Source: Geosiphon pyriformis uo1 (taxonomy: Eukaryota > Fungi > Glomeromycota). Taken from it: a stretch of 64,000 nucleotides of DNA. The notes under the pieces were generated by a model. The model searched no databases. It was given only the letters and a program-made list of their open reading frames with translations, and was not told the DNA's origin. Of this stretch, positions 4,831 through 32,042 are shown piece by piece. The stretch's first letter is position 1, and each line of letters begins with the position of its first letter. The translations under genes and the position numbers were made by a program. The stretch covers positions 636,787 to 700,786 of the forward strand of contig JAAOMT010000183.1 of NCBI GenBank assembly GCA_016748015.1, in the 5' to 3' direction.

Positions 4831-5698
4831 ACGTAGCTTTTCTTCTATAAACTAGTTCAAATAGTGTGAAGTGTGTCGTATTTTGCTTTAGTGTTTGGTA
4901 TGCAAAGAGTACTGAAGGTATGAATAAGTCTCATTCTTGTTCATTTTCTTGACTTATTTTTGCTAGTGTTTCACAAAGTATTTGGTTAAACTGTTCTATC
5001 AGTTCATTAGTTTGTGGGTGGTATGGTGACAATAAAAGACATTTTATACCAAACTATTGGCTTAATTCTGTTAACATATTATTAATAAAATGTGTTCCTT
5101 GATCAGATAACAATTCTTTTGGACACTCATGTTAGCAAATTAGGTCTTGATGTATGAACTCGGCTACTGTTTTGGCATTAGCCACTTGAATTGCTCTGGC
5201 TTCTGGCCATTTTGTAAGATAATTAATGACTACAGTGATATATTGATTTTTTTTGGATGTAATTGAGAGAGAACCAACCAAATTGATCTCAATTCTATTA
5301 AATAAATTTCCAACTGGAATGAATCAAAGTGGTTCTGTTGATCTTGCTTCTCCTTTTCGCTGGCATGTGTTATAATTGAACACATATTCGAAAATGTCTT
5401 TGTATATTATTGGTCAATAGTATAAATTTAGTGTTCTTTCGAGAATAGCATCTTTGTTAAAGTGTTCTGACATTGGATCTGAGTGCATGCTATATAGTAT
5501 AGTTTCTTTTTTACTGTTCTTGATTAGTTGTTGTGGGGTGGAGTGGTTTCAGCATTCTTGTTGATATAGTTGGTTGTCTTGAATAAAATAATTTCAGGCT
5601 TGTTTTCATATGGTACTTTGTTCCTGTTGAGATAATATCTCCTTGAAATGTAGTGTTGATAGGTACTGATGTAGTCATTAATAAGTGAGTGTGTCTAT
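4831..5698 (-). pseudogene. int: B1 integrase, N-terminal and core part
   Basis: Colinear with the B2 integrase: HSD...H...C..C zinc finger, SDQGTHF, PYHPQTN. Confidence 0.88.
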
Positions 5699-5708
5699 AG
5701 GTCTGGGA

Positions 5709-7567
5709 TTAAGTTTGTGGCATTCTCGACAAACTGTTAGCATTGGTGTTCTTGAATTCTTCTTTGTAATGAACTTTGAGTGAGAATTGTTGCAGATAAG
5801 TACTCTATCTTGCATATTTTCCTTTTAGTTGTGGATTGTTGAGTAATCAAATAAGTTCTTTGTGGTTGGTATATAGGTCAAATGGTTAATTGAGGTAATG
5901 TTTTCAAGTCTGTATGGCCCAATAAATGGTAAGACATTCCAGATCTGTTGTGCTGTAATTTTTTTCTGCTGGGCTCGTGCTACAACTGACATAGGCAACT
6001 GGATGTTTTCTATTGTCTGGTTCTATCTGTGATAAGACTGCTCCTAGAGCATTTTTTGAGACATCTATAGTAACAATAAACTATTTAGTGAAATCTGGGT
6101 AAATCAGGATTGGGGAAGTGATCAATCACTGCTTGAGATAATCAAATGCCTTCTGTTGATCTTCCTTTCACAAGTACAGTACATATTTGAACAACAAATA
6201 ATGGAGTGGTTTTGTGATGTTCAAAAAACCTTTGACAAATTGATGATAATATTCTGCCAATTCTAGAAATCTTTGTAATTCTTTGAGGTTGATTGGGGCT
6301 AAAAAATTTTTGACTTTTTGGACCTTATCTGGATTGGGTTTGACTCCATCTTTGCTGATTATATGTCTTAAGAATTTTAACTTGGTTTTTCCAAAGAAGC
6401 ATTTATCGGGGTTGAGTTTCAATCTGGCATTATGAAGGTGTTCGAAGACTTGTTGCAGATGGAGCAAATGATTGTCAAACATTTCAGAGAAAACATTGGT
6501 GTTGTCTAGATATACTATGACTGATTTCCACAGGATTCCTTTGTATATGATATTCATGAAGCATTGGAATGTGGCAGAAGTGTTGCAGAGTTCAAAAGAC
6601 ATTACATTAAACTCGAAGTTTCCATCTCAAGTAGTAAACACTGTTTTTCCTTTGTCTTTGGGGTCCATTTCAACTTGCCAATAACCACTTGCTAGATCTA
6701 ATAACAAGAACCATTTCTTTTTTCCTAAATTGTCCAGAATTTCTTGGATAAGGGGAGTAGAATAACTATTTCTTCGAATGATGCTGTTTAGTTTCCTGTA
6801 GTCCATGCAAAATCATATCTTTCCATTTTTCTTAGTAACTAGGACTACTGGAGAGGACCAAGGGCTTAACAATTCTTTGATTAAACTATTGTCAAGCATT
6901 TGTTATACTTTTTGCTTAATTAAGTTATTACCAGATGGGGGTACTTGGTAAGCTTGTTGCTTGATAAGTCGAGCAGCTTCTGTGTTGATTTGGTGTTTTA
7001 TGATAGTATGTCCAAATTCATTTTCGCTGGCAAAAACATCAGCATACTGATTCAGAAGAACTTTGAGTTGCATCTGTTGTAGGATACTTAAGTTTCCTAA
7101 ATTCAATTTATTGATCTCTTCTGGTGTAAACAGATAACTTTTTTTTGGCAAATTCTATACTTGTGACATAATGTCACAGAATAAGAACAATTGTGCAAAA
7201 TTTGAAATAGACTGGGGTTTCTCAGGGTTCTAAATATCTGTGGATATAGAACTGATGAGGATTCCTTTAGGAATTTTTATAATATCTTTGGTTGGATTGT
7301 GAATAGAGATTTTGAAGTGTTTATGAGTTTTTACTGATAGATACAAGTTAGTGACATCAGTTAGAAAGCAAATTTCAGGATCGGTTTCAAATAGCAGGGC
7401 CTGGTCTTGAATTTTCTGATTCACTTTAAGGAGATATTGTCGATAAGGAGGGATGGAAATAATGGTGTCAGTGTAGATAAATTCTATCTGGTCACTGTCT
7501 TCCTTTGCAAAATTGACTAGTACATTTTTTCTTTTACTTGATCCGAACTTATTGATTCCTCGGGCAG
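5709..7567 (-). pseudogene. pol: B1 reverse transcriptase-RNase H (plus dUTPase C-terminus)
   Basis: SPWSSPV, DLASGYWQ, YLDN (YLDD-derived), RNase H ending ANSLSRMPQT*. Confidence 0.9.
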
Positions 7568-8550
7568 TGTTACCGGAGGTTTTTGGTCTCTTTTCTTAAA
7601 TGTTGTTAATGTTGATTTGTTGTAAATTCACGTTTCCAGGAAGTAGTTGGATCTCCAGTAACTGAATTTATCTTCAAATTATCTCCTATAATTTGAACTT
7701 GTTGGGCTTATGAGTGGAATGGCCAATTTTGTGCCAGTTGCTTTATGTAGTTATGTTGTAGTAAACGTCAACTCTTTCCCAAGAATTGCTCGTCTGGAAG
7801 CTTACTAAAAATGTGTAGTTACTTTGCTGTGAAAGTCAACTCTTCTACAGGAATCTCGTCTGTAGGCTACCCTAATGATTGTAATAAGAAAAAAAAATAA
7901 AAATAAAAGAAATGTAAAAGAAATAGGATTTTTATCAAGGGAAACGTTTTTCTATTCAGGTCTGGAGTCACTAACAGTTTACTGAAATTGGTAGCTAATC
8001 AATTTCAAAATGTTAGTTGGGTTTTTGAGAATTTTCTAAGTGCAATAATTTAAAAAATTTGGTTTTTCCAATTATTTGATATTAATTTCTTTTTGTGTAT
8101 GTAAGAATGATTCTAAGTGATAAATCTAAAGTAAGATACATTTTCTCGAAGAGAGAAGCTCTTCTTTTATACAACTTGTCATAACACTATTCTATGAACT
8201 TGAACTTTGCTATTTTCTACAATTTTGCTGAACTAAAGATATATTTCGGTAAACTACAAGTTATTTCTGTGAACTATTAGATATTTCGGTAAACTATTAA
8301 TTATTTCAGCAAATTTCTACAAATTTCAGCGAACTTTTGAATGTTACATAGTTCAGGGTATTGCATGATTGATCATCGCAATTAGGTTACATTTGTGTTG
8401 TGTACAAATTGGGTTATTAATTAAATGATAATTTTGAACATTTTGCTAATGTAATAAGTGATAATTTGAAACGATAATATATGCTAATTAATGATAGGAA
8501 TTATGAGATAGTTTCATGCTAAATGATATCTCTAATTTTGTCTGGTAACA
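7568..8550 (-). repeat. 3' LTR of A2
   Basis: TGTTAC...GTAACA; direct repeat of 16456-17438. Confidence 0.95.
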
Positions 8551-9238
8551 TAATCTCCTCCTCAAGACTGAGCTCTGTTGAAGTCCAAGTACTGTCTGTT
8601 ATTTCCAGATAATAATCCAAAATTATTGAAGAAATTTGGTCTGAAAATTGTTGAAATTTCAGTTCTGTAAGCTTTCCAATGTATTAAATCTTCAAAGGTT
8701 GAAAAATTGGGTTTTGTAGTACGTTTTCACAGATGTGGAATAGGTCATAAAGTCTAAGAGCAGCTCTAAGCCTATAACAACTGTTTGTTAATTCAGCTGT
8801 TGTCTTGAATTCATTGTGGAGTTGTTTCTGAATAGCTTTTTTTGTGAGGTTTGCTGTTGTAAGTTCCAGTTTCCATTCGTAGAGTGTTTTTCCAATGTGA
8901 AAATATCTATAGATTAGAGGATATTCAGTGTTTTTCTCATTGAGACACAGTTGAAGTTTTTGTTGACTTGTAGCATTTGGTGAGATACTAATCAGAATGA
9001 GCATTAGATTTTCTCTTAAAGCAAGCTTTAAAAGTTCTGGCAGGTGAATTCTAGTATAACTTCTTGTGTTCTTTTTATATGAATGATATTTTTGTGAATT
9101 TGGGGCTAAATTTGTAACTACTTCTGTTTGGGTATAATTTATGTGGTTTCCAGTAATAGTAATGGATAATTCAGGTATTGTTTTTAAAGCTAACATTAGT
9201 TTTTGGGATAATTGTTGAATGTTTTAAGGAATAGTCAT
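8519..9238 (-). pseudogene. A2 ORF3, unknown accessory protein (about 240 codons, two internal stops, runs into the 3' LTR)
   Basis: Extends ORF 8684-9196 in frame; similar ORFs at the same position in families B, C and D. Confidence 0.72.
8554..8563 (-). promoter_or_regulatory. Polypurine tract of A2
   Basis: GAGGAGGAGA just upstream of the 3' LTR. Confidence 0.8.
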
Positions 9239-9353
9239 TATAAGCACTTGAAAAAAATAAAAATTTATTTTTGGTTTATGGGTTTTTATGTTATTTTTGT
9301 TTTGTTTTTGTGAGATTGTTCTAAATTATAAAAGAATAACTAGTAAAATTAAA

Positions 9354-10739
9354 TTAAGTATTCAGGTTGAAAGGTTGTTTAATGATAACTATTGGTTCTA
9401 AGTTTCAGGGAATATCTTTGGGACTGATCAAAGGGGAATATGTACCAATTTGTGGAATTAATGGTTCAGAATTGTTTCTGGAATGATAGTGTTTCAAACG
9501 ATCTCCATGTGCAACTTTTGCTAGGATTTTGTTATCAAGTCTTAGCTTGTATGATCTATTGCCTAGGACTTTATGGATAAAGAATGGTCTATCCCATTTA
9601 TTTTCAAATTTTCCACTCCATTGTTTTTCAGCTTTAGTTCTGTGTAAAAGAACTTTGTTTCCAATTTTGAATTTATTGGTGACTGAATGTAATTTATCAT
9701 CATGCCGTTCTTTTTGTTGAGCTTGGGAGTGTTCAATATGGGTGGCTGCTATTTGTTGTTTTCCTTCCAATGTGCTAAGCAGAGTGTAGGCTCTTCGCTG
9801 AAGTGTTTCTTGGAAATTGTTTTCATCAATCAGTTGTGCTGGGTATGTTTCCACTGTGAAACTAATTGGTAATGTTGCCATCCTTCCATAAGTTAAATCA
9901 AATGGTGTGTGTTTTGTGGTATCTTGTTTTAATGTCCTATATACTAATAACACTGATGGAATAAAGAGATCCCATTCTTGCCCAAAATTGGTTGAGACTT
10001 TGGCTAATGACTCACACAATGTTCTGTTAAAATGTTCTACAAGTCTATTTGTTTGTGGATGATAGGACGAAAACAGAGGTCTTTTGACATTGAATCATTC
10101 GCAAATTTTTTGTATCAGGTTGTTCACAAAGTGTGTCCCCTGATCAGATAAAAGTTCAATTGGACATCCATGTCTACAAATGATGTCTTCATAGATGAAA
10201 TTTGCTACTGATTTTGCATCTGCTTGTTGAATGGTTCTGGCTTCGGGCCATTTAATAAGATAGTTTACAGCTACTGCAATATAACGGTTTCCTTGAGTGG
10301 TGATAGATAGTGGTCCGACTAAATTGATACCAATTCAGTCAAAGGGTTGTCCAACTTTGATTGGATTTAATGGTTCAGTAGAGTGTGTTCCTTCTCTTCT
10401 TTGACAACTATCACAAGATTCGACATATTCATGAATGTCTTTTCTCATTCGAGGCCAAAAGTAGTATTCTAATGTTCTTTGGGTGGTGCTATCTTTTTCA
10501 AAGTGTGCTGATAAAGGATCTGAGTGCATGTTGTATAATATGGTTTCTTTTTCTTGTTCTTGTATTAATCTGAGTGGTTTGTTTGGATTTTTGAAATTTT
10601 GATGATAAATAATGTTGTTGTGTAGAAAATATTGTTTGGCTTGTTATTGTAGTTAATGTTTTTCATCTGGAGACTAATCTGTTGGGATTGTTAATGTTTC
10701 CAAATATTGTTTGAGATTGTTGTAGTTTTTTGAATTCAT
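9354..10739 (-). pseudogene. int: A2 integrase (separate ORF)
   Basis: HHCC zinc finger (HSD...H...CDSC), SDQGTHF, GPF-type motif; own ATG at 10739. Confidence 0.9.
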
Positions 10740-10790
10740 TGTTTGTTGGCTCTTTTGGTTGGTTAAGTTGAGTGTTGGTTTTTGTGTTTT

Positions 10791-13700
10791 CTAATCTTGT
10801 CTCATTCTAGAAAGACAGTCAACATTAGTGTGGAGTTTTCCTGGTTTGTGATGTACTATGTATTAATAGTTTGCTAGAAATCCTGTTCATCAGGTTTGTT
10901 TTACATTCAGCTGAGTATTTTTGTTCTGAAGCCATTTGAGTCCAATATTATCAGTAATAATATCAAATTCTTTAGGCCTGAGATAAAGGTTGAAGTGGTG
11001 TAAAGCCCAAATTACAGCTGCTGTTTCTAGTTCTGTGGCAGAGTAGTTTTTCTCAGCTGGTTTTAATGTTCTGCTAGCATAAACAATTACTCACTCATTT
11101 TCATTGTCATCTAGTTGTAATAAGATGGCACCAAAGGCAGTATACGAAGCATCTGTAGCTAGTCAAAATCAGTTGCTGAAATCTGGGTAGGTGAGAATTG
11201 GAGCTGTTGTCAGTTTTTCTTTGAGAATTTCAAAAGCTTTTTGGTGTTCGGTAGTCCATTTGTATTCAACGTTTTTGGTGGTGAGCTGGTTGAGGGGTTT
11301 TGCAATTTTGGAGAATCCTTTGATAAACTTTCGATAGTAGAATGCTAATTCTATGAATCCTCTTAGTTCTGAAGTGTTTTGAGGAGTTTTGAAGTTTTTG
11401 ACAATGCTGATTTTTCTAGGATCCAGTTTGATTCCATCTTTACTAATGATATGCCCAAGGAAGACCAAGCTTGTTTTTCCAAAGTAGCATTTTTTGATGT
11501 TGAGTTTTAGTCCTGCTTTTTGTAATCATTGAAAAACTTTTCACAAGTGTTTTAAGTGTAATTCGAATGATGGAGAATAAACATCAGTATTGTCAAGATA
11601 AATGACTACTGACTTCCAAAAAAGTCCTTGGTACACAACATCCATTAATCTTTGAAACGTTGCTGGTGCATTGCATAATCCGAAAAGCATTACATTGAAC
11701 TCATAATTTCTGTCTTGGGTGGTGAATACTGTCTTGGGGCGATCTTTGAGATCCATAGCAACTTGCCAGTAACCACTTTCTAAATCTAGTGTTGAAAAGT
11801 ATTTGGATTTTCCAAGGGCATCTAACATGTCATCAATTCGGAGAAGGGGGTAGGCATCTCTAATTGTAACACTATTGAGTTGTCAATAGTCAACACAAAA
11901 TCAGATCTTTCCATTTTTCTTTTTAACTAACACTATAGGTGAAGCCCAAGGACTCATGGAGAGTTGGATGAGCCCATTGTTAAGCATTCATTGTACTTCT
12001 TTTCAGATGAATTGGTGGCTTTCTGAAGCAACTCGATATGCTTGTTGTCTTCTTGGTTTGGCATCTCTTGTATAAATTTGGTGTTGGACCAAATTGGTTC
12101 TTCCTAAGTCATTGTTGTTTTCAGCAAAGATATCGGCAAATTCTGTAATTAGCTCTTTGAGCTGGGTCTGTTGTTGTGGTTCAAGTTGTCCCATGTTGAT
12201 TTGAGACAATTTTTCCATAACAACATGGTAGTTTTTGGAGCTGGGGTTTGGGTTGATTTTTGGTAGTGAATGTTTGATAATTTCAGAGAAATCGGGAACT
12301 GTTTAGGGTAATTCTTGTTGAAATATATTACTGTGAATAACTCCAATTTCTAAATTATTTAATAAAATTATGGGGTAATTATTGGGGTTGTAAAAAGTAA
12401 CTTGGACTTTCTTTGTTCCTTCTGAAATATAAATGTTTGGGATCGAAATATTATGTTCCAAGCAGATTTGTTCATTGGATTCAAAAATTTGTTGTGTGGT
12501 TGTTGGCTTTGAGCAGATGTAGATTTCCGGATGTTTTTCAAAGGGTAAGATGGTAATTAGTTGTGGAAGTCTGAGAATCTGGTGGAATTCATTCTGTGTG
12601 TTAAGAGCTATATTAACTGGAACTGTGAATCGTCCAGTTGAACCAAAATCTTGGGTTCCTCTATCACTTTTTCCTAATTGTTCTCTTTGATTAACTAGTT
12701 GCAAACCTGAAATGTTGATTAAGGGTAGGTAAATAGCTTGGGCAATTTTTTCAGCATGTTCAATCTTGAATGGTTTGTCAGTTTCATTTTGAAGCATCAC
12801 TGTAATGTTTCCAGTATATCCAGCATTGATTATTCCTCCTCTGACATTGATTTCTTTGCTTGCCAGAAAGGACCGGAAGGTGATTTGAACTATTGCTCCT
12901 AGTGGGATTTCGAGTGCAATTTTGAGGTTGATTTTTGTGAGAGATTTGGGTTTGAGAACAAGAGTATCCTTGCCTGGATATTTTAGGTCATATCCAGCAT
13001 CAATTTTGTGTGCTTTTTCGGATTTTATTCCTTGTCCATTGTTGTTGAAGTATTTAAGTTGTAAGGCAAGCTGATTTTTGATAAGGTAGATGGATATTGT
13101 TTCAATTTCTTCTATTGCTTCAGGTTCTCCAAATTCAATTTCGTTTTCATCATTTTTGCTGGGCAAAGGAATACTAAGAGCATAGCATTCAGAACACCAC
13201 TGTTCATCACAAGGCATAATGCATTCTTCACATAGTCTAATGTTCATTTGCTCTAATCATTGAATTTGAGCTTCTTGGATTGGTTAGGTGTGACTTGCAA
13301 TTTGGTGGTAGACTTCTACTTCATCTTCATAATCGAATCCAGCTAATTTCATAGTGTATTTAATATATTCTGTTTCCTTCATTTGATGAACATTTTCTTT
13401 GGTAGCTCTATTAATTAATGCCATTGCTAGGTCGAAAATCATCTCGGCATCATAGAGGTAGTGATAAAGTTTGTTGAAAGCACTGTTGTATGCTGTATTA
13501 AAGAGTGTTCCTCTTTTTACTTTTTCTAAAATTGATAAAGCATATTGGCAGGTCTGATTGCAGACTCCTCCTCTTATGGCTACATCAATCTAATTGCATT
13601 CTTCTGGTAGCATATCTCCACAAGTCAAACAAGAGGTGTTATTCCATTTTCTGTTCCTTTTTATTAGATGGCCCCATTGTTTTCTGTGACAAGCCTTACA

Positions 13701-16409
13701 GTAATAACAAGTATGATTTTCATATTCTTCTTCAGGTGAAATGCAGGCTCCCATTGACAATAGTTTCTTGTGGCAGTTCTTACATTTAAAGGGAATATAG
13801 GGGTGTTGTTTCTTTGGTTCAGGTTTTGAGTAAGGGATATTCCATCCAGAGGTTTTGAGTTCAGAGTGTGGAATAAAATGTTCTTGTTCTGTTTCATCAG
13901 CCCAGTTGGACGTTGATCCAAGAGCCATGAATGTTTCAATGAGGGGTTTTTCCTCTTCCGGTTTGAATTCAAAAGCCGGGGTTTTTCCAGAGCATTTGTT
14001 GAATGTACCACAAGTGGCAGGTACCTGGGTGTGTTGTTCTTGGTAAGAGATTGTTAACTCTTGTGTTTCCCAATTCAGATTAGCATTGGCTTTTTGAAAC
14101 CAATCATTTCTGACGAGAGCTTGGTATTGGGGTGCATCCATTACAAGAACTTTGACTGGAATAGTGATTCCATCAAGAGTGAACAGAAAATTGTCAATTT
14201 CTCCTACTGGGGTCTTTTTCATGTTATCAGCAGTGACAATTACTGTTTGAGCTGGTTGGTTGACATTTCTCTTCAACTATTGCATTAACTGGTAGATGAT
14301 AATGCTTCTGGTGGATCCACTGTTTAGAATCAAGCGAATTGTCTTTCCTTCAACTTCTGTTTCAGTGTACATAGCTGTGATTGCTTTTTGTTCATTGGCG
14401 GCTGCATTGCTAAGCAGAAATGGTGACTCATTTGCTTCAAACTCAAAAGGGAATATATCTGAAAGGTTAGTGTTTTCAGCGATTCTGGCTGGTGGGATTG
14501 TGGTGGGAGTATAGGAAAGGTTTTGTTGTTGTGCTGCAGCTCTACCTTCCAAAGGTGCAGTATGGTAAAAATCCTGTTCTTCTGGCATTGTTAAATAACT
14601 GGGCTGAGTGTGGTAGTGGTTGGGTCTTGGTTGAGTGAAATTTTGGGGAACCAATTGGTTGTTCGAACTGATTCTATTGTTGTTTACTTGGTATCAGTTT
14701 TGTGGTGTAAATTGATTTTGTGTAATCAGTCTTTAAGCAGGTACTTGATAATGTTGTGTGGGTGGTTGTTGGTATTGCTGTTGGATTGGTTGTGGGGTGG
14801 GCTGATAATAGTTATTTTGGTATTGGGGTCTTGGTGGATAGTAAGCTGGTGGTAGTAGTTGATAATAAGATTGCTGTGGTGGAGGGTAACGTTGATTACT
14901 CCTATTTTGTTGGTCTCGTTGTAGCTTTCTGCAATCTCTTTTCCAGTGGCCAGAGTTTCCACAGTAATGGCAATTCTGAGGCTGGTTATTAGAAAGTGGT
15001 GCAAAGTTATTTTGATTTCGTTTTTGGGGTGGTTGATATCTTTGGGGTTGCTGTTGTTGTTGATTGGTGAAATAGTTTTCAACCTTCTTTGTAAGTTGGT
15101 CAATTTTTTCCTCAGCTGCTGAACTGGTTTTTTCAATTGCCAAATTTACAAGTTTTGTGCGATTGGCCTTTTCCATGGCCATTTCGTATCTTTTCGCATG
15201 CTGTATAGCAGAGTTTAAATCTTCTGGCGCATGTGGGCGAATCTTTTTAATTAGTTTATCTTTTAGACCAGTGATAAATTGATCCAAGATTAGAGCATCA
15301 GAATAATAATTGTTTGTTTTGAGTTGGTGAATTTGTCTAAGAAGTTTGTTGAATTTCCCAATATAAGTCATAACAGATTCGGAGGGTTCTTGTTTGATAT
15401 TTCGAAAACGATTGCGAAGGGTAATAGAGGTATTATTGTCAGTGAACTGTTTAAGGAAGGCTGCTTTGAAAGTGTTCCAATCATTGAATGGGATGGCCAA
15501 GTTTTCAAACCATTCTTCTACTGTTCCTTTAAGAAAGTAGGGAATTGTTCTTAACATTCTGGCAGCATTCCATCTATTTGCATCTCCAGCTTTAGTAACT
15601 TGGTCAAGCCATTCTTGGGGGCTGGTCTCAATGTCTTCTCCATTAAATTCAGGGATTTTTGTGATGTATGTTGTCATTTTGTCTTTTTCATTTTCACTGT
15701 CTATTGATTCTTTTTCAGATATTTCAGGTTCATTTTCTTCGTTCGCTGCTGTCTCAGAGTGTTCACTTTGATTTTCAGCTAGAAAGTCAAGGAGATTGGA
15801 ACTAGTTTGAAGGAATTCTTGTTGTCTGATGGGACTTCTGAGTGATGTAAAATTTTCTGGTCTTGCAAATCGATTCAAAGGTAAATTAGGCGTTTGTGCT
15901 TGTGCAAATGAAGCTAGAAAAAGTGTAATAGTAAGTGGAAGTTTTGAACTGGTTCCTTGTTCAGGTGTTTGTAAATAATTGGCAGTTGTTTTTGGTAGTG
16001 TTGGAGTATTTGGGGTAGTTTTTGAGTATTGCTTCAATTTGTTTTTGCCTTTGTTGCTTGTTTCTGTTTCCGATTTAAAATCAATAGAGTATTGAGACTG
16101 CACTGGATATATTTCTTCACAGTATTTGATAATGTTAAAATTAAGTTTGTGAAAGTAAGTGGCAAGTGTTTTGCTGTTAAGGTTTTCAGTTCCCAACTGT
16201 GAATAGTGTGCTAAATTATTGTAAAGATTGCTTCTAACTTCTGAAATATTGTAATTTCCAAAAAGATAATTGTTGATGCAGTTTTCAATGTATTGGTATA
16301 CTGATTTCTTGACAACTTTAATTCCATCTGGAATGTTGAATCTTTGCTTGCAGTGGGTGTAAATTGATTGGTAATACTCTAGAGTTGTTGCATCTGGTGT
16401 GGTTGCCAC
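10791..16409 (-). pseudogene. gag-pol: A2 gag-PR-Cys-rich-dUTPase-RT-RNaseH, one reading frame with nonsense mutations
   Basis: All ORF fragments share one frame; CCHC knuckle CHYCGNSGHWKRDC, LILNSGS, dUTPase, LDLESGYWQ, YLDN. Confidence 0.92.
12640..13020 (-). pseudogene. dut: dUTPase domain within A2 pol
   Basis: DAGYDL, RSFLA, GGIINAGYTG, KIAQ, RGTQDFGSTG match trimeric dUTPase motifs 1-5. Confidence 0.92.
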
Positions 16410-16436
16410 TTTGAATTTTGTTGTTGTTTTGTTATT

Positions 16437-16453
16437 TCCATGGGAGAGCACCA
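16437..16453 (-). promoter_or_regulatory. Primer binding site of A2
   Basis: TGGTGCTCTCCCATGG next to the 5' LTR. Confidence 0.85.
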
Positions 16454-16455
16454 AA

Positions 16456-17438
16456 TGTTACCGCAGGTTTTTGGTCTCTTTTTTTAAATGTTGTTAATGT
16501 TGATTTGTTGTGAATTCACGTTTCCAGGAAGTAGTTGGACCTCCAGTAACTGAATTTATCTTCAAATTATCTTCTATAATTTGAACTTGCTGGGCTTATG
16601 AGTAGAATGGCCAATTCCATGCCAGTTGCTTTATGTAGTTACGTTGTAGTAAACATCAACTCTTTCCCAGGAATTGCTCATCTGGAAGCTTACTAAAAAT
16701 GTGTAGTTACTTTGCTGTGAAAGTCAACTTTTCTACAGGAATCTTGTCTGTAGGCTACTCTAATAATTATAATAAGAAAAGAAAAAAAAAATAAAAGAAA
16801 TGTAAAAAAAATAGGATTTTTATCAAGGGAAACGTTTTTCTATCCAGGCCTGGAGTCACTAACAGTTTACTGAAATTGGTAGCTAATCAATTTCAAAACG
16901 TTAGTTGGGTTTTTGAGAATTTTCCAAGTGCAATAATTTAAAGAATTTGGTTTTTCGAATTATTTGATATTTATTTCTTTTTGTGTGTATAGAAATGATT
17001 CTAAGTGATAAATCTAAAGTAAGATACATTTTCTCGAAGAGAGAAGCTCTTCTTTTATACAACTTGTTGTAACACTATTCTATGAACTTGAACTTTGCTA
17101 TTTTCTACAATTTTGCTGAACTAAAGATACATTTCGGTGAACTACAAATTATTTCTGCAAACTATTAGATATTTCGGTAAACTATCAATTATTTCAGCAA
17201 ATTTTTACAAATTTCAGCAAACTTTTGAATATTACATAGTTCAGGGTATTGCATGATTGATCATCGCAATTAGGTTACATTTGTGTTGTGTACAAATTGG
17301 ATTATTAATTAAATAATAATTTTGAACATTTTGCTAATGTAATAAGTGATAATTTGAAACGATAATATATGCTAATTAATGATAGGAATTATAAGATAAT
17401 TTCATGCTAAATAATATCTCTAATTTCATCTAGTAACA
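16456..17438 (-). repeat. 5' LTR of A2
   Basis: Direct repeat of 7568-8550; adjacent PBS. Confidence 0.95.
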
Positions 17439-18186
17439 GCAGTGAGGCCTAACTTTTCACAAGTAGTAACCAGAGCTAATTGTGGTATTTTCATCAGAGG
17501 CAGGAAGATAGCTTAAGCTATTTTGTCATGTGATTCTATTTTGTAGAACCTATTTGAATTGTTTTGTAGCATCACAATGATATTTTCAGTATATCCAGCA
17601 TCGATGATTTCTCTTTTTACATCAATTTTTTTCTTTGCAAGGCTAGATCTAAATGCTACTTGTACCATAGTACTAACTGGAATTTCTAATGCTATTTTGA
17701 GATCTATGCTTACTAAGGAATGTGGGACTATGACTAGGGATAATTGTCTGAGATATCGTAAATCGAAACCAGCATTAGTGTCATGTGCTTTTTTGGGGCA
17801 GATTCTCTCGTTATTATTACTATACCATTTCAATTCTAATTCTTTGGAAAGGTCGGAATATGCAAGGTATTGTTTTGTTTTGGTAGCCTTATTTGGCTCT
17901 TGATATAGCATGTTCTCAGCTATTAACTCGGCTTCTTTTTTGGGTTCTAGTAGTTTGTCAATAGAGTATAATATTTTTGGCAGTGGATTGAACATAAGAT
18001 CACATTTATCACAGTACTAGAAATGGCAAGAGATCAGGTAATGATCACATAGTTTTGTGTTTAGGTCAGCTAGTCTCTGTTCCTGTTCTTCTCAGGTTGG
18101 GACCAATTCTTGGTAATGATTCTGAAATGCGTCTGGGTTGTCAGTGAAAAACTCTTTGGTAATGTAATCGGGTCCATTATATTCAG
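17439..18186 (-). pseudogene. dut: B1 dUTPase and Cys-rich segment
   Basis: ORF 17513-17995: AGFDLRY, RSSLA, IIDAGYT, KIA. Confidence 0.88.
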
Positions 18187-19025
18187 TGTTATGAAAGTGT
18201 TTTCTTGGTATATTTTAATTGTTGATCTTCTATTTTAATTGCAATCAGTCTCTTGTGAGTTTCTCTATTTTATGTGTTGGATATTTAATGATAATGTACT
18301 GAAAGTTTTCTCTTGATGTTGTGATGTAAGTCTTTTCTTTAATTCTAGTTGTCTTTGTATGTTTTGTACTCTTTCTCAGAGGCTAATCTAAAATCTATCT
18401 GCTGTTTTGGGGTTTTTTTTGAGGCTATTCTTGCAATTGTCTGATGTGTTTCTCTAATCTAGAAACACAGAATATTAATGGCCTTTTTGCAATTTCCCTA
18501 AGTATATAATAAAGCTTTTTTAATTTAATTAGTAACCACGTAAATAATTTTGATCAGGGATTATTTTTCCAAAGAATTTAAAGATGGAATGATAGTTTTA
18601 TTTCCTAGAGAGGATATGTGAATTCTATTGTTAATCTTGCAATTGTGATGTTCATTCACTTCTTTTTATTAATTCTTTTTTTTAAATAAAATTTTATTTA
18701 GATATTTGTTGCTTTGAGTTGAAGCTTGTTTTTCTTCATCATTAAAAACTATTGTATATATATATAATTATTGTTTTACAAAATAACGTTTTGTAATACT
18801 CTATATCCGTTATTTCTAAATAATACTTGTTGCTATTGTGAAATAGTGCTTGCTGCTATTGTAAAATAGTGCTTGCTGCTATTGCACAATAATGCTTGAT
18901 GCTATTGTAAAATAGTGCTTGCTGTTATTTGTAAATCATTTCTTTTTATAAATTGTTGCTGTGCTATTTCATGATTGGCTAATTTATATTATTTATAATT
19001 CTTATTAAATTTTTGAATTGTAACA
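18187..19025 (-). repeat. 3' LTR of C1
   Basis: Direct repeat of 26989-27828; PPT GAAAGGAGGGGA adjacent. Confidence 0.93.
18828..18928. repeat. About 23-bp tandem repeats in C-family U3 (also about 27631-27731)
   Basis: Repeated TGCTGCTATTGTAAAATAGTGCT-like units. Confidence 0.85.
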
Positions 19026-19709
19026 TTATCCCCTCCTTTCAAGATTGAGCTCTGTTGAAATCAAAGTTAATTTCTTCATTGATTCTATATTACTATAATA
19101 ATCTAATACTGTATTATTAATTTGTTGTTGTAAATTTTGAAATTGTAAATTGGTTAATCGTCCAATGCTATTAATTATTATAAGATTCATAGTTGGATTC
19201 AATAGTACTTTGTGACAGTTTTTGAAAGCCTTAAAAATTCTGTAAACAGCTTTTATATGAAGTATATTATTGGTTTTTTTAATAAAACTTTCCAATTATT
19301 GTATCATTGTTTTGCTGAATACTTTGACTGAATCTTTTGAGTATAATGTTTGTATGTTTAATTGTTTTCTCAATTGGTAATAACAATAATTAATGGAGAA
19401 TTTTTTCTTTAGCTATTCAAATATACTTGGTGTTAATTCTACTATGTTCATTTTTTCTGTTATCAATGTATTATCCAATACTATTTCTAAATTTTTAATG
19501 GTTTTGTCAATAAAGCTGTTACTGTTTTTGGCAATAGTAGTATATGGTGCAAAACTAGGTTTTTCATTTATCGTAGAATTTGGTATTATTTTTCTTTTAT
19601 ATAATATCTCGGAACTATTGATTGTAATTTCCAAATCTGAATTTGATTGTTGTAAGCTTTGACATAGTTGTTAGGTTAACTTACTAATGTTTTCTGGAAT
19701 ATATGTCAT
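19026..19709 (-). pseudogene. C1 ORF3, unknown accessory protein (about 228 codons)
   Basis: ORFs 19413-19634 and 19026-19295 are in frame with ATG 19709; similar to ORF3 of A, B and D. Confidence 0.72.
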
Positions 19710-19794
19710 TGTTTTAATTCCTAACTGCTTTTTGGACTCTTTTGCATGCATTTTTATGCTTTGTTAACTGTTTTTTGGTGTAATTTAAGATTAA

Positions 19795-21176
19795 TTATCT
19801 TTTTATATAATGTTCAATTAAAACTACTGGTTCTAAATTTCGTGGAATTTGATCTGGTAATACTAGTGGTATTTGTGTTCCAATTCTAAGTGTTTGTGTT
19901 GTTATTACTGGTTTATTGTAATATAATTTCAGCTGGTTGCCATGTGCTGTTTTTCTTAAAATTTTCTCATCTAGTCTTAACTTGTATGCTCTATTGCCAA
20001 GTATTTTATAAATATAGAATGATCCATCCCACTTGTGATCAAACTTTCCACTCCATTGCTTTTCTGCTTTGGTACAATGCAACAATACTTTGTCTTCTAT
20101 TTTATAGCTAATTATATTATCTGGTAACTGGTTATTATGTTTTACTTTTTGTTGTGCTTGTGACTGTTCAATATTTTGAGCTGCTTTTCTTCTTTTGTTC
20201 TCCAAAATTTCTATTAACTCATATGTTCTTCTAAGTATTGTTTCGTGAAATGTGGTTTCTGTAATAATTTCATTTGGATAAGTTGGAATAGTAAGTTCAA
20301 TTGGTAATATGGCTTTTTTTCTATAAACCAATTCAAATGGTGTGAATTGTATAGTATTTTGTTTTAATGTCTTATATGCTAATAAAACTGCTGGTATGAA
20401 CAAATCCTATTTTTTTTCATGTTTATTGCTGATTTTGGCTAATGCTTCACATAGTGTATGGTTAAACCATTCAACTAATCTATTTGTTTAAGGGTGATAT
20501 GGTAATAATAGTGGTCGTTTAATTCCAAATCTTTGGCTGAGCTTATTTAGTGTACTGTTTACAAAATGTGTCCCTTGGTCTGACAACAATTCTTGTGAAC
20601 ATCCATGGCAGCAAATTAAATCTTTATGTGTACAAAGTGGGCTACAGATATAGCATCAGCTGTTTGAATGACTCTGGCTTCTGGCCATTTAATGAGATAA
20701 TCTACTACAACTGCAATATAACAATTGTTTCTTGCTGTTATTGGTAATAGTCCAACTAAATTAATTTCAATTCTATCAAATAGTTGTCCAACTTTTATGG
20801 GTCTTAGTGGTTCTGTTGTTTTTGTTCCTCTTCTTTGTTGGCATGAGTCACAATTTCTTATGTATTAGATAATATTTAAGTGCATTTTTGGCCAATAATA
20901 ACGACTAGTTGTACATTAAATAGTTGTTTCTTTTCTAAAGTGGTCTGAATAGATATCTGAGTGCATGTTAAATAAGATAGTTTCTTTTTCATTTTCGGTT
21001 ATAATTCTCAATGGATTATCTGGATTTTGTTGATTCTGGTAATAAAGTATGTGGTTTTGAGTAAAATAATGTTTTGATAATTTCTGGAACTTAATTAGTT
21101 CTTTTATCGGTGTGTTTTCATCTAGCTGTAGTGTTCTCAAGTATTGGCTAAGATTTTTGTAAAGATAATTGTCCAT
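19795..21176 (-). pseudogene. int: C1 integrase (separate ORF)
   Basis: MDNYLY start, HHCC, SDQGTHF, KFDHKWDGSF. Confidence 0.9.
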
Positions 21177-21207
21177 TGTTTATGAATTGGTTGTTGTTTG
21201 ATGGTTT

Positions 21208-24200
21208 TTATGTGTGTCTCATTTGCAACAAGCAGTCAGCATTGGCATTTTTAGTATCTTTTTTGTATTTGATGATATAATTGTATGGTGCTAATATTTG
21301 TAATCATCTAGTATATTTTCCTTTCAGCACTTTCTTGTTATTTAACCAGACCAGACCTCTATAATCTGTGGTAATATCAAAAGGTTTGTATTGTAAGTAT
21401 GTGTCAAAATGAACACAACTCCCAACTACCACTAAGTATTCAAGTTCATGTGCTGTATAGTTTTGCTCTGCCATACTAAGACTTCTGCTGACATAAGTGA
21501 TTACATATTCTTTTCCATTATCATTTTTTTGTGACAGAATGGCTCTAAGTTCAGTTCCAGAGGCATCTGTGGTCAAAATGAATTTCTTGTTGAAATTCGA
21601 ATAGATCATTATTGGTGATTTAATGAGCTTTTGTCTAAGATACTCAAAAGCTTTTTGCTGTGTTTTGGTCCATTCAAATTTCACATTTTTGGATAGTAGA
21701 TAATTAAGAGGTTTGGTGATGTTTGAAAAGTTTTCTACAAAGTGGCAGTAGTAAGATGTGAGTTTTAAAAAACTTCTAACTTCTGAAACATTTTGAGGTA
21801 CTGGAAAATTTTTCACTTTGTCTATTTTTGATGGATCTGGTTTTATTCCATCTTTTCTAACTATGTGTTCTAGAAATGTTAGCTCATTTTTCTCAAAGAA
21901 ACATTTTTCTAAATTTAATTTAAGTTCAGCATGTCTCAATCTCTCAAAAACTTGTTGTAAATATTGGAGATGATCTGTGAATTTTGGTAAAAAAACATTT
22001 GTATTGTCCAAGTAGACAACAATGGATTATCACAGAATTCTGAAGTAAATTACATCCATTAGTCTTTGGAATGTTGTGGGAGTGTTTGTCAATCTAAATA
22101 GCATTACATTGAACTTATAATTGCCATTTTGTGTTGTGAATGCTGTTTTATGCTTGTCTTTTGGGTCCATTTCCACTTGCCAGTATCCACTGGTCAAGTC
22201 AAGTATAGAAAACCATTTTGTTCTTCCAAAAACGTCGAAGATTTTGTCAATTAATAGTATTGGGTATAAATCTTTGGTTGTTTTGCTGTTTAGTTTGCGA
22301 TAGTCAATGCAAAATCTTATTTTTCTGTTCTTTTTCTTTACTAAAACAACTGGTGAGAACCATGGGCTTATTGATGGTTGAATTATTCCTTTTTCCAACA
22401 TGCTTTGGACTTCTTCTCTGATAAAATTATGCTTCATTGGTGGAACACAGTAAGCATGTTGTTTTTCAGGTCTGGTGTCTCCAGTGGGAATTTGGTATTG
22501 AACCAAGTTGGTTCTTCCAAATTTGCTATTTCATGAAAATATATCAGAGTATTTTAAAATTAATGCTTTTAATTGTCACTGTTGGTCTGGATCCATTGTT
22601 CCAATGTTTAATTTGGCCAATTTTTCTGGCATAAATTGATAGTATTCCAATGGTTGTTGCCAATTTATTGAAGTGAGTTTACAGTAAAGAGCAATTTTTG
22701 AGAAATTTAGAATTTTTTGTGGTGTTGATGCGTTTTTTAGCTCCATTCTAAGGTATCTCATGATGGTGTTATCTGGAATGTATATGAGCTCTTCTGTGGT
22801 ATTTGTGATAGGAATTTTTATCCATTGTGTTTTGTCAGTTGGAATAAAAAGGTTAGTAAGTCCTATGGGAAACTGTTGACAAGTTTCTGGATGGGGCTCA
22901 AATATTAGATTTATATCTTTTATTGTTCTTTTTATTTTAATTTCTGATTTTCTATAAGGCATAAGTGTAATTGACCACTCAGTTTTAATTAATTTGCTTT
23001 TTTCTTCTATTGTTTCAGCAAAATTTGCTTCAATTTCTTTTTTTGTCGATCCGAAACCAAAAGTTCTTCTCATTGTTTGTATCAATTCCTCACAATTTTT
23101 GACTGGCACAAATTTCCCAATTTTTACCAATGATAAAAAAATTGCTTGTGCAATCTTTTTTTTAGATTTAATGGTATAAGGTTTTTCTGAATTGTTTTGT
23201 AGCAAAACCATCAAATTTCCAGTGTATCCGGAGTTAATTACTTCTTTTTGAATGCTTATTCTTTTTTTTGCAAGGCTTGATTGCAATACTATTTGAACCA
23301 TTATTCCTGGTGGAATTTCAACCACTATTTTCAGGTCAATTTTAGTAATACTCCTGGGTGGTAATGTCGTGGATTGGTTTTCCAGATACCATAGATCAAA
23401 TCCAGCATCAGTTAGATGGGCTCTTTTGGGTACTATTTCTAAGTGCCCATTATCATAGTACTGGATGCTAATCTCCTGATCTAGATCAGTATAGGCTAAA
23501 ATATTTTCTGACTCGGGACCGTTAGATGAGTTTTGTTGATTTATTGATTGATTTTGGTACTGCTGATTCTCAATTTTTTTTTTTTTTTTAAGTCTCTTTC
23601 ATATTAACACTTTTCACAGCACTGACTTGGCATAAAATAAGACAGTCTTTGCAAAGGTAAGTGTTAATCTGGGTGAGATACTGTTCTTGCTCTTGACGAA
23701 TAGAACATAGCTGTTGGTAGTTTTCTTGGAATTTGTTTACTGGGTCAAACATGTTGTAGTTGGTGACTTTGTTGGCTATTTAGACTGACATTTTCTAATG
23801 TCGTATTTCTTTGGCAGTTCCTCCTCTTACTTTGGTCTGTGTGGTGTTGTATAATTCATCCTCATCATGTGGGTAGTGCTGCAGTCTTCTTAATGCTCTG
23901 TTGAACACAGCTTTGAATGGCATTTCTCCTCTTACCCAATCACAGATGAGGATTGTGTATTGGCAAGTTGTGTCACATGTTTCTCCTCTGCCTGGCATGT
24001 CGATCCAGTCGCACCCTTTTGGCAATAGTTCTCCACAAGTGAAACACAGTTTTTCATTCTATTTTCCATGTCTTTCTGGATTACCATATTTTTCTTTGTT
24101 ACAATAATTACAATAGTAGTGGGTGGAGTTTCTTGGGTCTTCGTCTAGTGTGTTGCATGCAGTCATGGACAAGAGTTTTTTTATTGCAAACCGAACATTC

Positions 24201-26907
24201 TAGTTTTGGTCTGTATTGCTGGCGGTTTCTTTGTGGACTTACCTGGTTCTATTCAGATTTTCCTTCACTCTTTCAAGTTGGTATGGCCAGTAGTCCTGTT
24301 TTTTGGTCATTAGTCCATGAGAGCTGATAAGTTTTGATGGCTAGTAGAGCTGGATTTTTTTCAAATTTGAAGGTAGGTCTTTGGTTGGTGCTGGGTTTTT
24401 GGAAGTGGCCACATGTGGCTGGAATTCTGGCATGGTGGCCATTATAGCTGATAAGAAGCTCTTGGGTGGTCCAGTCTAATGTGGCATTGGCTTTTGTTAA
24501 CCAGTTATTTCCTACTAATGCTTGATATTGTGTAGCATCCATTACTAATACTTTTGTAGGTATTATTATGCCATTAATTTCAAAAGAAAATGAGTTGATT
24601 TATCCATAAGGCAGCTTGGTACTTCTATTGACTGTTATAATTTGGGATGTTGTAGCACGATTAACTTTGAAACCCAGTTGGTTTACTAGTTAAAGTGTTA
24701 CAATGTTTCCAGTAGATCCACTGTCTAAGATGAGTTTAATTGGCATGTTGTTTACTTTTGCTTCTGTGTATATAGCAGTAATTAGGCATTCTTTGTCCAA
24801 TGCTGCTTCACTAAACATAGTCTTTTTTTTCTCTAATTTAAAAGAAAAAATAGCTGCAAGGCTGCTATCTTTTATGACAATGACTGATAGTATTGTTTAG
24901 ATCAAGTTCTGGCTATTAGTAACATTTTTGGTTTCAGGTATGTTACCATTAATATTTCCGAGATTTAAGTTTTCCAATATATTAAGATAAATTGGCTGGA
25001 AATTTGGGTAGTTTGTGTTTGTTTGCTGATTAGGTTTTATGCGATTAGGATTTCTAGTAATAATTGCGTTTTGGTCTAATACTGGCTGGCTTCAAAACTC
25101 TGGACACCAGTTTGGATTTAGAATTGCTGATTATTGCTAGTAAGTTCCTTGATTTTGGTATGTAGTGGGGTATTGATGTGGTATTGGCGTGTATTGATTT
25201 TTGAGCATTTGGAGGGTGTGTAATAATTATTTTTGCATGTCTCTTGCATCATTTGTGTTCGACATTGGCCAATCAAATGTCCTATGTGTTTGCAAAAATG
25301 GTAGGTGTGTGTTTCTGTTCTGAAGTCCTAATGTGATGAGTAATTATTTTGGCTGTCACTGAATTTCTGGTTGTGGCTTTGAGGTGTTTGGTATGTGTTA
25401 TTTCTTTCTGGGTCTGAGATGAAGTAACTTTCTATTTTTTAGAGAGTTTTTCCCCTAATTGTGCTACTTTTTTCTCTAAAGTTTTTGTTTTATTTTCTTC
25501 AATCATCATGTTAACTATTTGACTATGATTAATTTCTTTCTCAGCTGATTCAAGAGCTCTGGCAAGCATAACAGCTTCTGGTAAGAAATTAGGGTGGACA
25601 GGACGTACTTTTCCTAAAATGCTGCTTTTTAATTCTCTAATAAATTGATTTAAAACCTGAGGATCAGTATAGTATCTTTGCTCAATTGCTTCAATCTGAC
25701 AGCAAATTTGATTGAATCGAGCAAGGTATTGGGTAACAGTTTCACCTGTATCTTGCTTGATAGTATTGAATTTGTTTTGCAGTTAGATTACGGCGTTTGG
25801 GTTGCTAAAATATTCTAAGAGTGCATCTTTGAATTTGGCAAAGCTCGTGGGTTTTGTTTCTAAGCTTTGATACCATGAGTCAGCAGTGCCTTTCAGAAAG
25901 AAAAATAATGTTTGGATTGCTCTTTGATCATTCCAGTTATTTGCTTGGATGGCTTTTTGTGCTTTTCTGAGCTATGTGTGCACGTCTATTTCTTTTTTCT
26001 CTCCTAAGAAATTCATTAATCGCACAATGTAAGGTGTGGCCATTTTGTTATTGTTTTTTGTTGGTGGGTTTATTGGTCTAAGAGGAGGTAGGATGATATT
26101 TTTTTGAGCATTTCTAAAGATGACTTCTCTTATATCCAGTTCTTTCTCTTGATTACGAGTTTCTTGGTTTTTGAACTGGCTGCTTGTTTCTGTGACTGGT
26201 CTTGTGCTTGTTTTTTCACTGGTTTCTTCGGATTCCGATTCAGACTCCTCTTTACGGTTTTCAAACTCTGCTCCAAATTTTGGTTGAAAAAAGAGTTTTT
26301 GGAATAGTGATGAATATCCTCCTATTATTGGTATATTTCCCCAATCACATTGTTTAAGTTTATCAGTATAATTAGGAGTTTTTGGTGTTTGTGGGGTTGA
26401 TGTAGATGATAATACAGCTCCTAATAGGAGTTGGATTTTATTATCTGGAGAAAAATGGTAAGATCTTTCTTTTGGCAAATGAAAGCATTGTTTTTTTACT
26501 GATTGCATAATGTTTTTTTTGGGCATTTAAGCAGATGTTCCTAATTTTTACTGATTTTTTTCATGATTAATTTCTGGATTATGGACATGTTTTCTGGTGT
26601 TCTTTGTGAATATTGGAAAATTTTTGTTGGTGTATTGCTCAATTTCGCAATAGATTTTAACAATAGTTGCAGCTATTACTGCTACTTTTTTTGTAGTGTA
26701 TTGTGATAATTCTCTATACAATCTAAGTTTCATATTGTGTAGTTTTTCTTTTTTTTCTATGTGGTAATTTATTCTGGCATTGATATAATAAGTGAAAGCA
26801 AATTCTGCTGGACAACACCCTTTTAGTAATCCAAGATCACTTTGATTTTGTGTGTAAATAGCATGGCAGAATTCAAGAACAGTAAGAGTAAAGGTTTTTG
26901 TTGCCAC
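21208..26907 (-). pseudogene. gag-pol: C1 gag-PR-Cys-rich-dUTPase-RT-RNaseH
   Basis: LILDSGS near 24730, dUTPase about 23045-23430, RT FCIDYRKLN and LDLTSGYWQ, RNase H TDASG. Confidence 0.9.
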
Positions 26908-26969
26908 TTTTGTTTTTTCTTTTTTAGCAATGAATTATTGCTAATTATTTTTTTTTTTTGATTTTCTTT

Positions 26970-26986
26970 TTTCGTAGGATTCACCA
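26970..26986 (-). promoter_or_regulatory. Primer binding site of C1 (differs from A, B and D)
   Basis: TGGTGAATCCTACG, 2 nt from the LTR. Confidence 0.75.
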
Positions 26987-26988
26987 AA

Positions 26989-27828
26989 TATTACAGGAGT
27001 GTTTTTTTGGTATATTTTAATTGTTAATCTCCCACTTTAATTGCAATCAGTCTCTTATGAGTTTCTCTATTTTATGTGTTGGATATTTAATGATAATATA
27101 CTGAAGGTTTTTTCTTGATGTTGTGATATAAGTCTTTTCTTTAATTCTAATTGTCTTTGTATGTTTTGTACTTTTTCCCAGAGACTAATCTGAAATATAC
27201 TTGCTGTTTTGAGGTTTTCTTTGAGGCTATTCTTGCAATTGTCTGATGTGTTTCTCTAATCTAGAAACACAGAATATTAATAGCCTTTTCGCAATTTTCC
27301 TAAGTATATAATAAAGCTTTTTTCAATTTAATTAGTAATCATGTAAATAATCTTGATCAGGGATTATTTTTCCAAAGGGTTTAAAGATGGAATGATAGTT
27401 TTATTTACTAGAGAGAGTATGTGAATTCTATTGTTAATCTTGCAATTGTAATGTTCATTCACTTCTTTTTATTAATTCTTTTTTTTAAATAAAATTTTAT
27501 TTAGATATTTGTTGCTTTGAGTTGAAGCTTGTCTTTCTTCATCATTAAAAACTATTGTATATATATATAATTATTGTTTTACAAAATAATGTTTTGTAAT
27601 ACTCTATTTCTGTTATTTTTAAATAGTACTTGCTGCTATTGTGAAATAGTGCTTGCTGCTATTGTAAAATAGTGCTTGCTGCTATTACACAATAGTGCTT
27701 GATGCTATTGTAAAATAGTGCTTGCTGTTATTTATAAATCATTTCTTTTTATAAATTGTTGCTGTGCTATTTCATGATTGGCTAATTTATATTATTTATA
27801 ATTCCTATTAAATTCTTGAACTATAACA
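26989..27828 (-). repeat. 5' LTR of C1
   Basis: Direct repeat of 18187-19025; termini mutated to TATTAC...ATAACA. Confidence 0.92.
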
Positions 27829-31983: not shown

Positions 31984-32024
31984 TTTTGTGTATCTCTGGG
32001 GTGCTCTGTTTCTGTGAATTTATA

Positions 32025-32042
32025 ACCTCACAAGGAGCACCA
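32025..32042 (-). promoter_or_regulatory. Primer binding site of B1
   Basis: TGGTGCTCCTTGTGAGG next to the LTR. Confidence 0.85.

Follow-up and report, generated by a model that had tools for sequence, protein, structure and literature searches.

In the standard plan of long terminal repeat (LTR) retroelements, integrase (IN) is encoded inside Pol, because fusion to Gag-Pol doses and packages the enzyme. A lineage without fused IN must translate and package it another way. We describe such a lineage of Ty3/Gypsy elements (Metaviridae) from a 64,000-nt stretch of the Geosiphon pyriformis uo1 genome (GenBank assembly GCA_016748015.1, contig JAAOMT010000183.1, positions 636,787 to 700,786), hereafter the window. 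The account centers on A2, a decayed element with three genes, and on its neighbors, which together represent four families, A to D. These letters differ from those used in an earlier reading of the DNA letters alone, hereafter the sequence-only reading. LTR elements make up 41% of the Geosiphon genome (PMC11952901).

The window elements share with Ty3/Gypsy the order LTR, primer-binding site (PBS), gag, protease (PR), reverse transcriptase (RT), RNase H, IN, polypurine tract (PPT), LTR, as well as TG..CA LTR ends and a target duplication. They differ in that IN lies outside the polyprotein, gag and pol form one frame, a third open reading frame (ORF3) is conserved, there is no chromodomain, and the duplication is 4 bp. 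Since the usual Gypsy feature of IN inside the Pol polyprotein is missing, the lineage is a variant rather than an ordinary member. Among solved structures, Ty3 was the best match when relatives of the window elements were used as queries (E 9e-108 for RT of the relative L027, 2e-49 for IN), scoring above caulimovirus-type and foamy virus enzymes. Chromoviruses make up most fungal Gypsy elements (PMC3248453), but the chromodomain at their IN C-terminus is missing here. Pfam gave no chromo match for three IN ends of the window; in A2, IN continues for about 42 residues past its SH3-like end, and for fewer in the relatives. In contrast to errantiviruses and retroviruses, ORF3 does not appear to be a membrane fusion glycoprotein, and in contrast to Ginger-type DNA transposons, IN follows RNase H inside LTR elements. 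Surveys that rely on rve only could miscount such free IN as Ginger transposases (compare PMC5751038).

A dUTPase between PR and RT is known from PosPlaTy3-5, Phanerochaete elements, Tuber Tmt1, rotifer Juno/Vesta/TelKA and planarian Burro (PMC2864245, PMC5408684, PMC6431247), and the accessible text describes no separate integrase for these elements. The rotifer elements also carry non-Env ORF3s, but these papers assign rotifer ORF3s to Env, GDSL, DEDDy or TM types. The sequence-only reading had set the dUTPase against typical Ty3/Gypsy elements, which it described as having none. As a mark of the lineage the dUTPase does not hold up, since it was found in 0 of 80 relatives, 18 of which span PR to RT, and it therefore appears to be a local addition. 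The Cys-rich region of the window elements was likewise found in none of the 80.

Integrase as a separate gene

The layout proposed by the sequence-only reading, LTR-Gag-PR-Cys-dUTPase-RT-RNase H followed by integrase and then ORF3, was recovered in all four families. Three elements are complete, and the fourth family shows the gene order only through two partial copies: D1 is without most of dUTPase and RT, and an older copy retains both. A stop codon, TAG in A2 and TAA in the other window copies, lies 4-5 codons past the RNase H end motif in all six junction-bearing copies of the four families. The ATG of IN follows 51, 31, 63 and 10 nt past this stop in the four families, in frame with Pol in two of them and out of frame in two. 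All four also have an in-frame Met codon 4 codons before the Pol stop (A2: 10791-10805), a possible mini-ORF, which may be plain protein conservation.

The relatives were the best 80 of at least 573 matches in a DNA scan of metagenomes (loci labeled L), and fusion of IN was tested on this DNA. RNase H and IN were unfused in 48/48 loci holding both domains; IN was in another frame in 35 of these and in frame with intervening stops in the other 13 (up to 16 in-frame stops). Across 60 junctions, frame offsets of 0, +1 and +2 occurred 14, 25 and 21 times, the stop was TAA in 41, TAG in 14 and TGA in 5, and the distance from stop to start ranged from -20 to 446 nt. As all frames and all stop codons occur, there is no single conserved readthrough or frameshift. 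We consider it very improbable that IN is joined to Pol by readthrough, frameshifting or an intron that removes the stop. A2 and C1, with only one in-frame stop each, would allow it, but the variety of frames and stops speaks against it, splice donors near the end of RNase H show no recurrent position (no offset has more than 4 of 47), and a fused IN would have no need of a conserved Met with start context. One subclade does appear to use readthrough at UGA-CUA, but between PR and RT.

UGA-CUA is a stop-codon readthrough signal. An in-frame TGA between PR and RT was seen in eight loci (L011:2498, L012:2882, L015:870, L058:3290, L062:902, L079:7930, L080:780 and L073:3109), followed by CTA in seven and by CCA in L073. 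In another set of loci (L027:4279-5163, L039, L044, L056, L069, L074 and L077), Pol runs on for 250-400 residues beyond RNase H; this extension has an acidic stretch and the Cys/His motif CDxxCDxENHHxHxxC, without a Pfam match.

A protein search with IN gave 948 matches. Among the 120 listed, lengths run from 359 to 451 aa, and most of the starts inspected share the position of the initial Met; the search covered 246-784 aa and by itself cannot show that IN stands alone. Five of the 120 are named from Rhizophagus irregularis, a species that has members of intact appearance. Two gene models of this species, P0367 and P0293, join IN to ORF3, each with gaps in IN. These fusions are likely gene-model artefacts; the models place IN and ORF3 next to each other in that genome.

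The window families and locus L003 formed one clade, with support of 100 in the IN tree and 98 in the RT tree (quick, unrooted FastTree trees, 7 near-duplicate rows being left out of the IN tree). RT-RNase H of A2 is 50-54% identical to that of the other window families. The sequence-only reading had described the LTRs as largely unalignable, which held in the part of the LTR comparison inspected: matches across families were limited to short AT-rich tracts. These results support its proposal of an old, coherent clade, in which the split between RNase H and integrase has been kept by selection; the elements did not collapse to a single Pol ORF. The host lineage is, on the sequence evidence, Glomeromycotina fungi. 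A literature search, which did not cover Repbase reports, the Geosiphon genome paper or subscription journals, found no description of a Gypsy lineage with separately encoded integrase.

Signals at the integrase and ORF3 starts

With moderate confidence, we favor a reading in which IN would be translated from the full-length RNA by reinitiation after the Gag-Pol stop, and ORF3 would be made from its own internal TATA promoter. The signals that suggest this come from the relatives; the spacers of the window itself agree with it. AUG was counted in 39 spacers of 11-200 nt, with 6 near-duplicates and, by clade, L032 and L033 left out. Only 4 were seen, compared to 31.8 in dinucleotide shuffles (lowest shuffle 20), and the depletion held in each spacer group alone (4 vs 31.6 and 0 vs 14.2). 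With the 50 nt next to the IN ATG excluded, the spacers had 1 AUG vs 17.9 expected. The AUG-free zone starts at the Pol stop or within 30 nt of it, and its length rises with that of the spacer (Spearman 0.72). On the 5' side of the stop, out-of-frame AUGs did not depart from synonymous expectation in 14 of the 15 group-by-bin tests; the remaining one, for the last 30 nt before the stop in plain-spacer loci, showed fewer (3 vs 10.2). A purine occupies position -3 in 65/71 IN starts vs 220/364 internal Met codons. The AUG-free zone from stop to start likely reflects the need of a ribosome that terminates, scans and restarts.

After the Gag-Pol stop, the small subunit would stay on the RNA, scan 10-200 nt and start at the first AUG, which is that of IN. 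Reinitiation would put the amount of IN below that of RT, replacing the frameshift that is absent in these elements. Free IN would have to be packaged by attachment to RNA or Gag-Pol, in the manner of foamy virus Pol. Foamy viruses make Pol apart from Gag and package it through RNA (PMC7828637), but in that account their Pol, translated from a spliced RNA, retains IN.

Eukaryotic ribosomes rarely reinitiate once they have translated a long ORF. Reported cases are LINE-1 ORF2, with a 63-nt spacer, SART1, with a UAAUG overlap, and termination-reinitiation in the hypovirus CHV1 (PMC5972666). As in these, a second ORF follows a long first one here, and L047 and L051 have a UAAUG overlap like that of SART1; however, the reported cases are non-LTR elements or RNA viruses, and the junction described here cuts Pol itself. 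Stop and start lie within 30 nt of each other in 13/60 loci and in one of the four window families, and junctions with the IN start at -20 to +5 nt relative to the stop (10/60) are one type and not the general pattern. Stop/restart of the kind that uses a termination upstream ribosome-binding site was rejected as a general mode because the spacing mostly exceeds 20-30 nt (51 nt in A2).

For ORF3, a TATAWAW word occurs within 150 nt upstream in 29/33 loci vs 6.5 expected, and these boxes cluster 35-63 nt before the ATG. In non-coding spacers, TATA was present in 15/20 for ORF3 vs 4/39 for IN (Fisher p 1e-6). ORF3 spacers were AUG-depleted in the last 50 nt only (4 vs 12.0; beyond, 18 vs 14.9). 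Where the spacer is 5 nt or shorter, IN ends in Tyr-Lys, which can spell a TATA box, in 5/7 loci vs 1/22 others. The TATA excess, the AUG pattern and Tyr-Lys at the IN end together make an internal ORF3 promoter likely. Within the window, three families of the four carry it: the box precedes ORF3 by 100 nt in B1, 41 nt in C1 and 46 nt in D1. Internal promoters for a third ORF are reported for the Oikopleura elements Tor3b/4b (PMC4402516), where, unlike here, that ORF is env.

Several observations weigh against this two-part reading. A2 is without a strict TATA box before ORF3, and TATA-like words, which are partly palindromic, also occur on the other strand in 20/33 loci. The four window spacers contain no AUG, but only 0.4 were expected, so they are too G-poor to test. 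Seven spacers longer than 165 nt, set apart from the rest, hold 38 AUG vs 44.9 expected, with a deficit confined to the final 50 nt (1 vs 7.5); these seven need another route to IN. According to reviews, cis-acting restart after long ORFs fades past about 30 nt, with LINE-1 and the cauliflower mosaic virus (CaMV) protein TAV as exceptions. A branch point plus YAG was found in the AUG-free zone of 21/53 loci vs 13 on the other strand. The link between ORF3 and junction type, described below, amounts to one or two phylogenetic contrasts. Finally, sequence patterns are the whole evidence, and the loci are related, so the p values overstate their independence.

The branch-plus-YAG count also bears on a route that we consider doubtful, in which IN would have its own subgenomic RNA. 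Such an RNA could begin at a promoter close to the Pol stop that has no TATA box, or it could be spliced, as that of foamy Pol is, with the 5' LTR joined to an acceptor in the same region. Beyond this precedent, a 5' leader would likewise be expected to be free of AUG, many spacers begin with a U-rich tract, and in the long-spacer subclade AUG is scarce in the final 50 nt only. However, the AUG-free zone scales with the spacer and begins close to the stop, and nine overlap loci retain an AUG 7-34 nt upstream of the IN start and are therefore unlike a scanned subgenomic leader. TATA upstream of IN showed no excess (12/58 vs 8.0 expected), nor did TATA in the 400 nt before the Pol stop of the relatives. 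Splicing is further opposed by the absence of AG from 8 spacers longer than 20 nt and of YAG from 7 AUG-free zones; the sole recurrent YAG (12 at -5) belongs to a hairpin stem and covaries to CGG in 2/21.

Whichever route is used, the dozens of natural junction variants, with the ORF3 promoter as an internal control, are usable in reporters. The spacers of L001, L005, L009, L014 and L017 have recurrent ACGGA, GGAYTACCC and TTGATTTAAC near the IN ATG, as seen by eye. The spacer of L035 is probably mis-measured.

Hairpin upstream of integrase

An RNA motif that combines invariant flanks with a 6-bp covarying stem was found in 28 of the 80 relatives (E 2e-4 or better), ending 0-50 nt upstream of the IN ATG. 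It consists of GUGAAAGC..AAG, the stem and a CANNGUGA loop. Five of the six pairs change on both sides, and 99% of cells are paired. The hairpin belongs mainly to one clade, and L053 bears it outside that clade. Possible roles are a brake on scanning, a protein-binding site and a packaging mark on the RNA. Its position also suits internal ribosome entry or shunting, with the structure at the IN start as the landing site. We consider this quite unlikely: a motif search found the hairpin neither in the window nor in the plain-spacer clade, and AUG is purged upstream of the hairpin too, which would be needless for internal entry. No Rfam family lay over the hairpin in 8 loci, and the motif had no exact match in viral contigs. 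A proposed outer stem was rejected, as it was misregistered on the alignment (29% paired); the inner stem alone is supported.

Conservation and possible role of ORF3

ORF3 is homologous in all four window families; A2 and B1 share 27% identity over 234 aa (E 4e-21). It matched 179 proteins, and the 120 listed are all annotated Geosiphon pyriformis, with up to 91% identity and many over the full 239 aa. Geosiphon ORF3 aligns with the ORF 3' of IN in 30 other loci (profile probability 92%, E 6e-7), and homologues are named from Funneliformis, Gigaspora, Glomus and Cetraspora. The family comprises 574 clusters at 50% identity and is without a Pfam family; in the annotation of Geosiphon and other arbuscular mycorrhizal fungi, its members appear as "hypothetical proteins" of the host. 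Purifying selection was seen in 9/9 pairs (pS 0.64-0.89 vs pN 0.27-0.42).

The sequence-only reading had called the layout retrovirus-like, a likeness that did not extend to ORF3. Among 34 proteins of 131-239 aa (pI 5.2-9.7), none has a membrane segment above Kyte-Doolittle 1.6 and no 19-mer exceeds 1.32. Two models (pLDDT 80.7 and 92.7) predict a mostly helical protein. Judged from the hydropathy and these models, ORF3 is a soluble helical protein and not Env. Foldseek at E 0.001 matched neither model in PDB or BFVD, and the best VIA Z scores were 4.6 and 5.3; neither a new fold nor a function follows from this. Sequence searches of Pfam, PHROGs and PDB gave scattered weak matches only, and the homologue P0344 gave nothing at 0.9 in Atlas.

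ORF3 was found in 0/7 loci of the overlap/readthrough clade vs 24/27 others with at least 700 nt downstream, L065 being counted outside the overlap clade. The ORF3-less clade holds most of the tight stop/start overlaps and the long AUG-containing spacers. In this clade, L011, L015, L029, L033 and L042 have Pol-IN spacers of 192-446 nt with many AUGs. Other proteins were seen in the ORF3 position: a NUDIX hydrolase ORF in L031 (1945-2886; Pfam E 2e-10), a Cys-rich ORF in L073 and L080, and a different 132-aa ORF in L017.

The CaMV protein TAV/P6 has its own 19S promoter and is much larger than ORF3. CaMV resembles the present elements, as far as their DNA layout goes, in being reverse-transcribing, with separate long ORFs on one RNA at variable spacing and one gene that stands apart, and TAV reinitiation is reported to be independent of distance (PMC5972666, PMC10275272). 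Unlike them, CaMV is without integrase or LTRs, and the searches with ORF3 yielded no clear homology to TAV. By this analogy, ORF3 might act in trans to restart ribosomes over the variable spacers, an idea we put forward tentatively. A helper of this kind would account for the lack of ORF3 in the tight-overlap clade, a pattern that goes back to one or two evolutionary events. The wider caulimovirus-like plan, in which free IN would be made by reinitiation and ORF3 would be a new fungal reinitiation factor crossing 30-200-nt spacers, with the hairpin serving in one clade and overlaps in the ORF3-less clade, we consider unlikely. A role of ORF3 in transcription, anti-silencing or packaging ranks higher, in sum, than a TAV-like one.

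We give about an even chance to ORF3 not being a translation factor and serving instead as an accessory protein that acts in the nucleus or binds RNA, such as a Tas-like activator, a silencing suppressor or a packaging adaptor. Foamy virus accessory genes have their own promoter toward the 3' end, as ORF3 appears to have. Basic residues are conserved on several ORF3 helices (R95 in 93%), although the wide range of pI fits less well. The host is CpG-depleted, which makes silencing a likely pressure. This explanation leaves the absence of ORF3 from the tight-overlap clade unaccounted for, and a packaging adaptor in particular is hard to reconcile with the free IN that this clade still has.

Elements of the window

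The features of A2 and its neighbors are listed in Table 1, together with hairpin examples from the relatives.

Table 1. Coordinates of features in the window and of hairpin examples in relatives (L loci)
Feature	Coordinates	Strand	Basis or remark
A2, decayed Ty3/Gypsy element, three genes	7568-17438	-	LTR pair, domain matches
5' LTR, 983 bp	16456-17438	-	LTR comparison; TATA box at LTR position 380
3' LTR	7568-8550	-	LTR comparison
PBS, begins TGGTGCTC	16436-16453	-	2 bases past 5' LTR; common to 3 of 4 families
PPT	8551-8563	-	sequence; precedes 3' LTR
Target site duplication GCAG, 4 bp	7564-7567 (left), 17439-17442 (right)	.	flank comparison
ORF1: Gag-PR-Cys-dUTPase-beta linker-RT-RNase H	10791-16457	-	single frame, 19 internal stops
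Capsid and CCHC zinc knuckle	14931-15677	-	Pfam Retrotrans_gag E 4e-14, zf-CCHC
Aspartic protease, ends approximate	14050-14420	-	Pfam matches in sister copies
Cys-rich region, no Pfam family	13185-13784	-	visibly kept in families A, B, D
dUTPase	12633-13020	-	Pfam PF00692 E 9e-20
Linker ("beta domain"), beta-rich	12305-12632	-	between dUTPase and RT
RT and RNase H, stop-interrupted	10794-12038	-	domain matches
Conserved stop TAG (10791-10793) and 51-nt A/C-rich AUG-free spacer	10740-10793	-	
ORF2: stand-alone IN, own ATG	9354-10739	-	HHCC, core, SH3-like end
IN-ORF3 spacer, 115 nt	9239-9353	-	TATAATT only, without strict TATAWAW
ORF3, 239 aa, 2 stops in A2	8519-9238	-	crosses PPT into 3' LTR
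B1, sister element, same layout	18187-27828	-	IN ATG 21176, ORF3 ATG 19709
C1, sister element, same layout	32276-42443	-	IN ATG 35218, ORF3 ATG 33781
D1, fourth-family element, RT deleted	51948-60643	-	IN ATG 55247, ORF3 ATG 53799
Older D copy retaining RT and dUTPase	4834-7563, 17443-18183, 27844-30268, 31236-32275, 42445-43319		split by insertions
Target duplication sites	7564-7567, 18183-18186, 32272-32275, 51944-51947, 30265-30268		
Hairpin examples	L037:1121-1188, L045:435-510, L053:3754-3829		and 25 further loci

The two A2 LTRs, 983 bp each with TG..CA ends, are 94.7% identical. No tRNA genes were found within the 64-kb window, and the primer tRNA for the TGGTGCTC site was not matched. 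A2 has decayed: 19 stops lie upstream of the RNase H end, the active-site D of the protease is N, and so is the first catalytic D of the IN core. For six of the stops, two other A copies allowed a comparison, and all six are a sense codon in at least one of these, so they are lesions. Of the 52 differences between the A2 LTRs, 48 are C>T/G>A, and CpG is depleted. Repeat-induced point mutation was rejected as the mutator, as the C>T/G>A changes are spread over CA, CT, CC and CG contexts. A second dUTPase fold was considered for the beta linker and was unsupported (hhalign probability 0.3%, from three broken copies).

The Gag frame likely opens inside the 5' LTR in A2. In three places (16456-16760, 41579-41900 and 59547-59850), it appears to start within the 5' LTR and to read across the LTR end and the PBS. 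An in-frame ATG is absent from A2 Gag for about 260 codons past the LTR.

The elements form a nested array at 4830-43319, in which an old D-family element is interrupted by A2, B1, a solo A LTR and C1; D1 is inserted within an A copy. Target duplications of 4 bp fit five insertions, two of them exactly, two with one transition and one with two transitions. The C and D LTRs (41579-42443 and 59547-60646) have in common, by eye, a pyrimidine tract followed by GATAGCCTGGTAAAAGA and TTAGCTTAC.AGAAGG, and it is possible that this tract acts as an RNA hairpin or processing signal.

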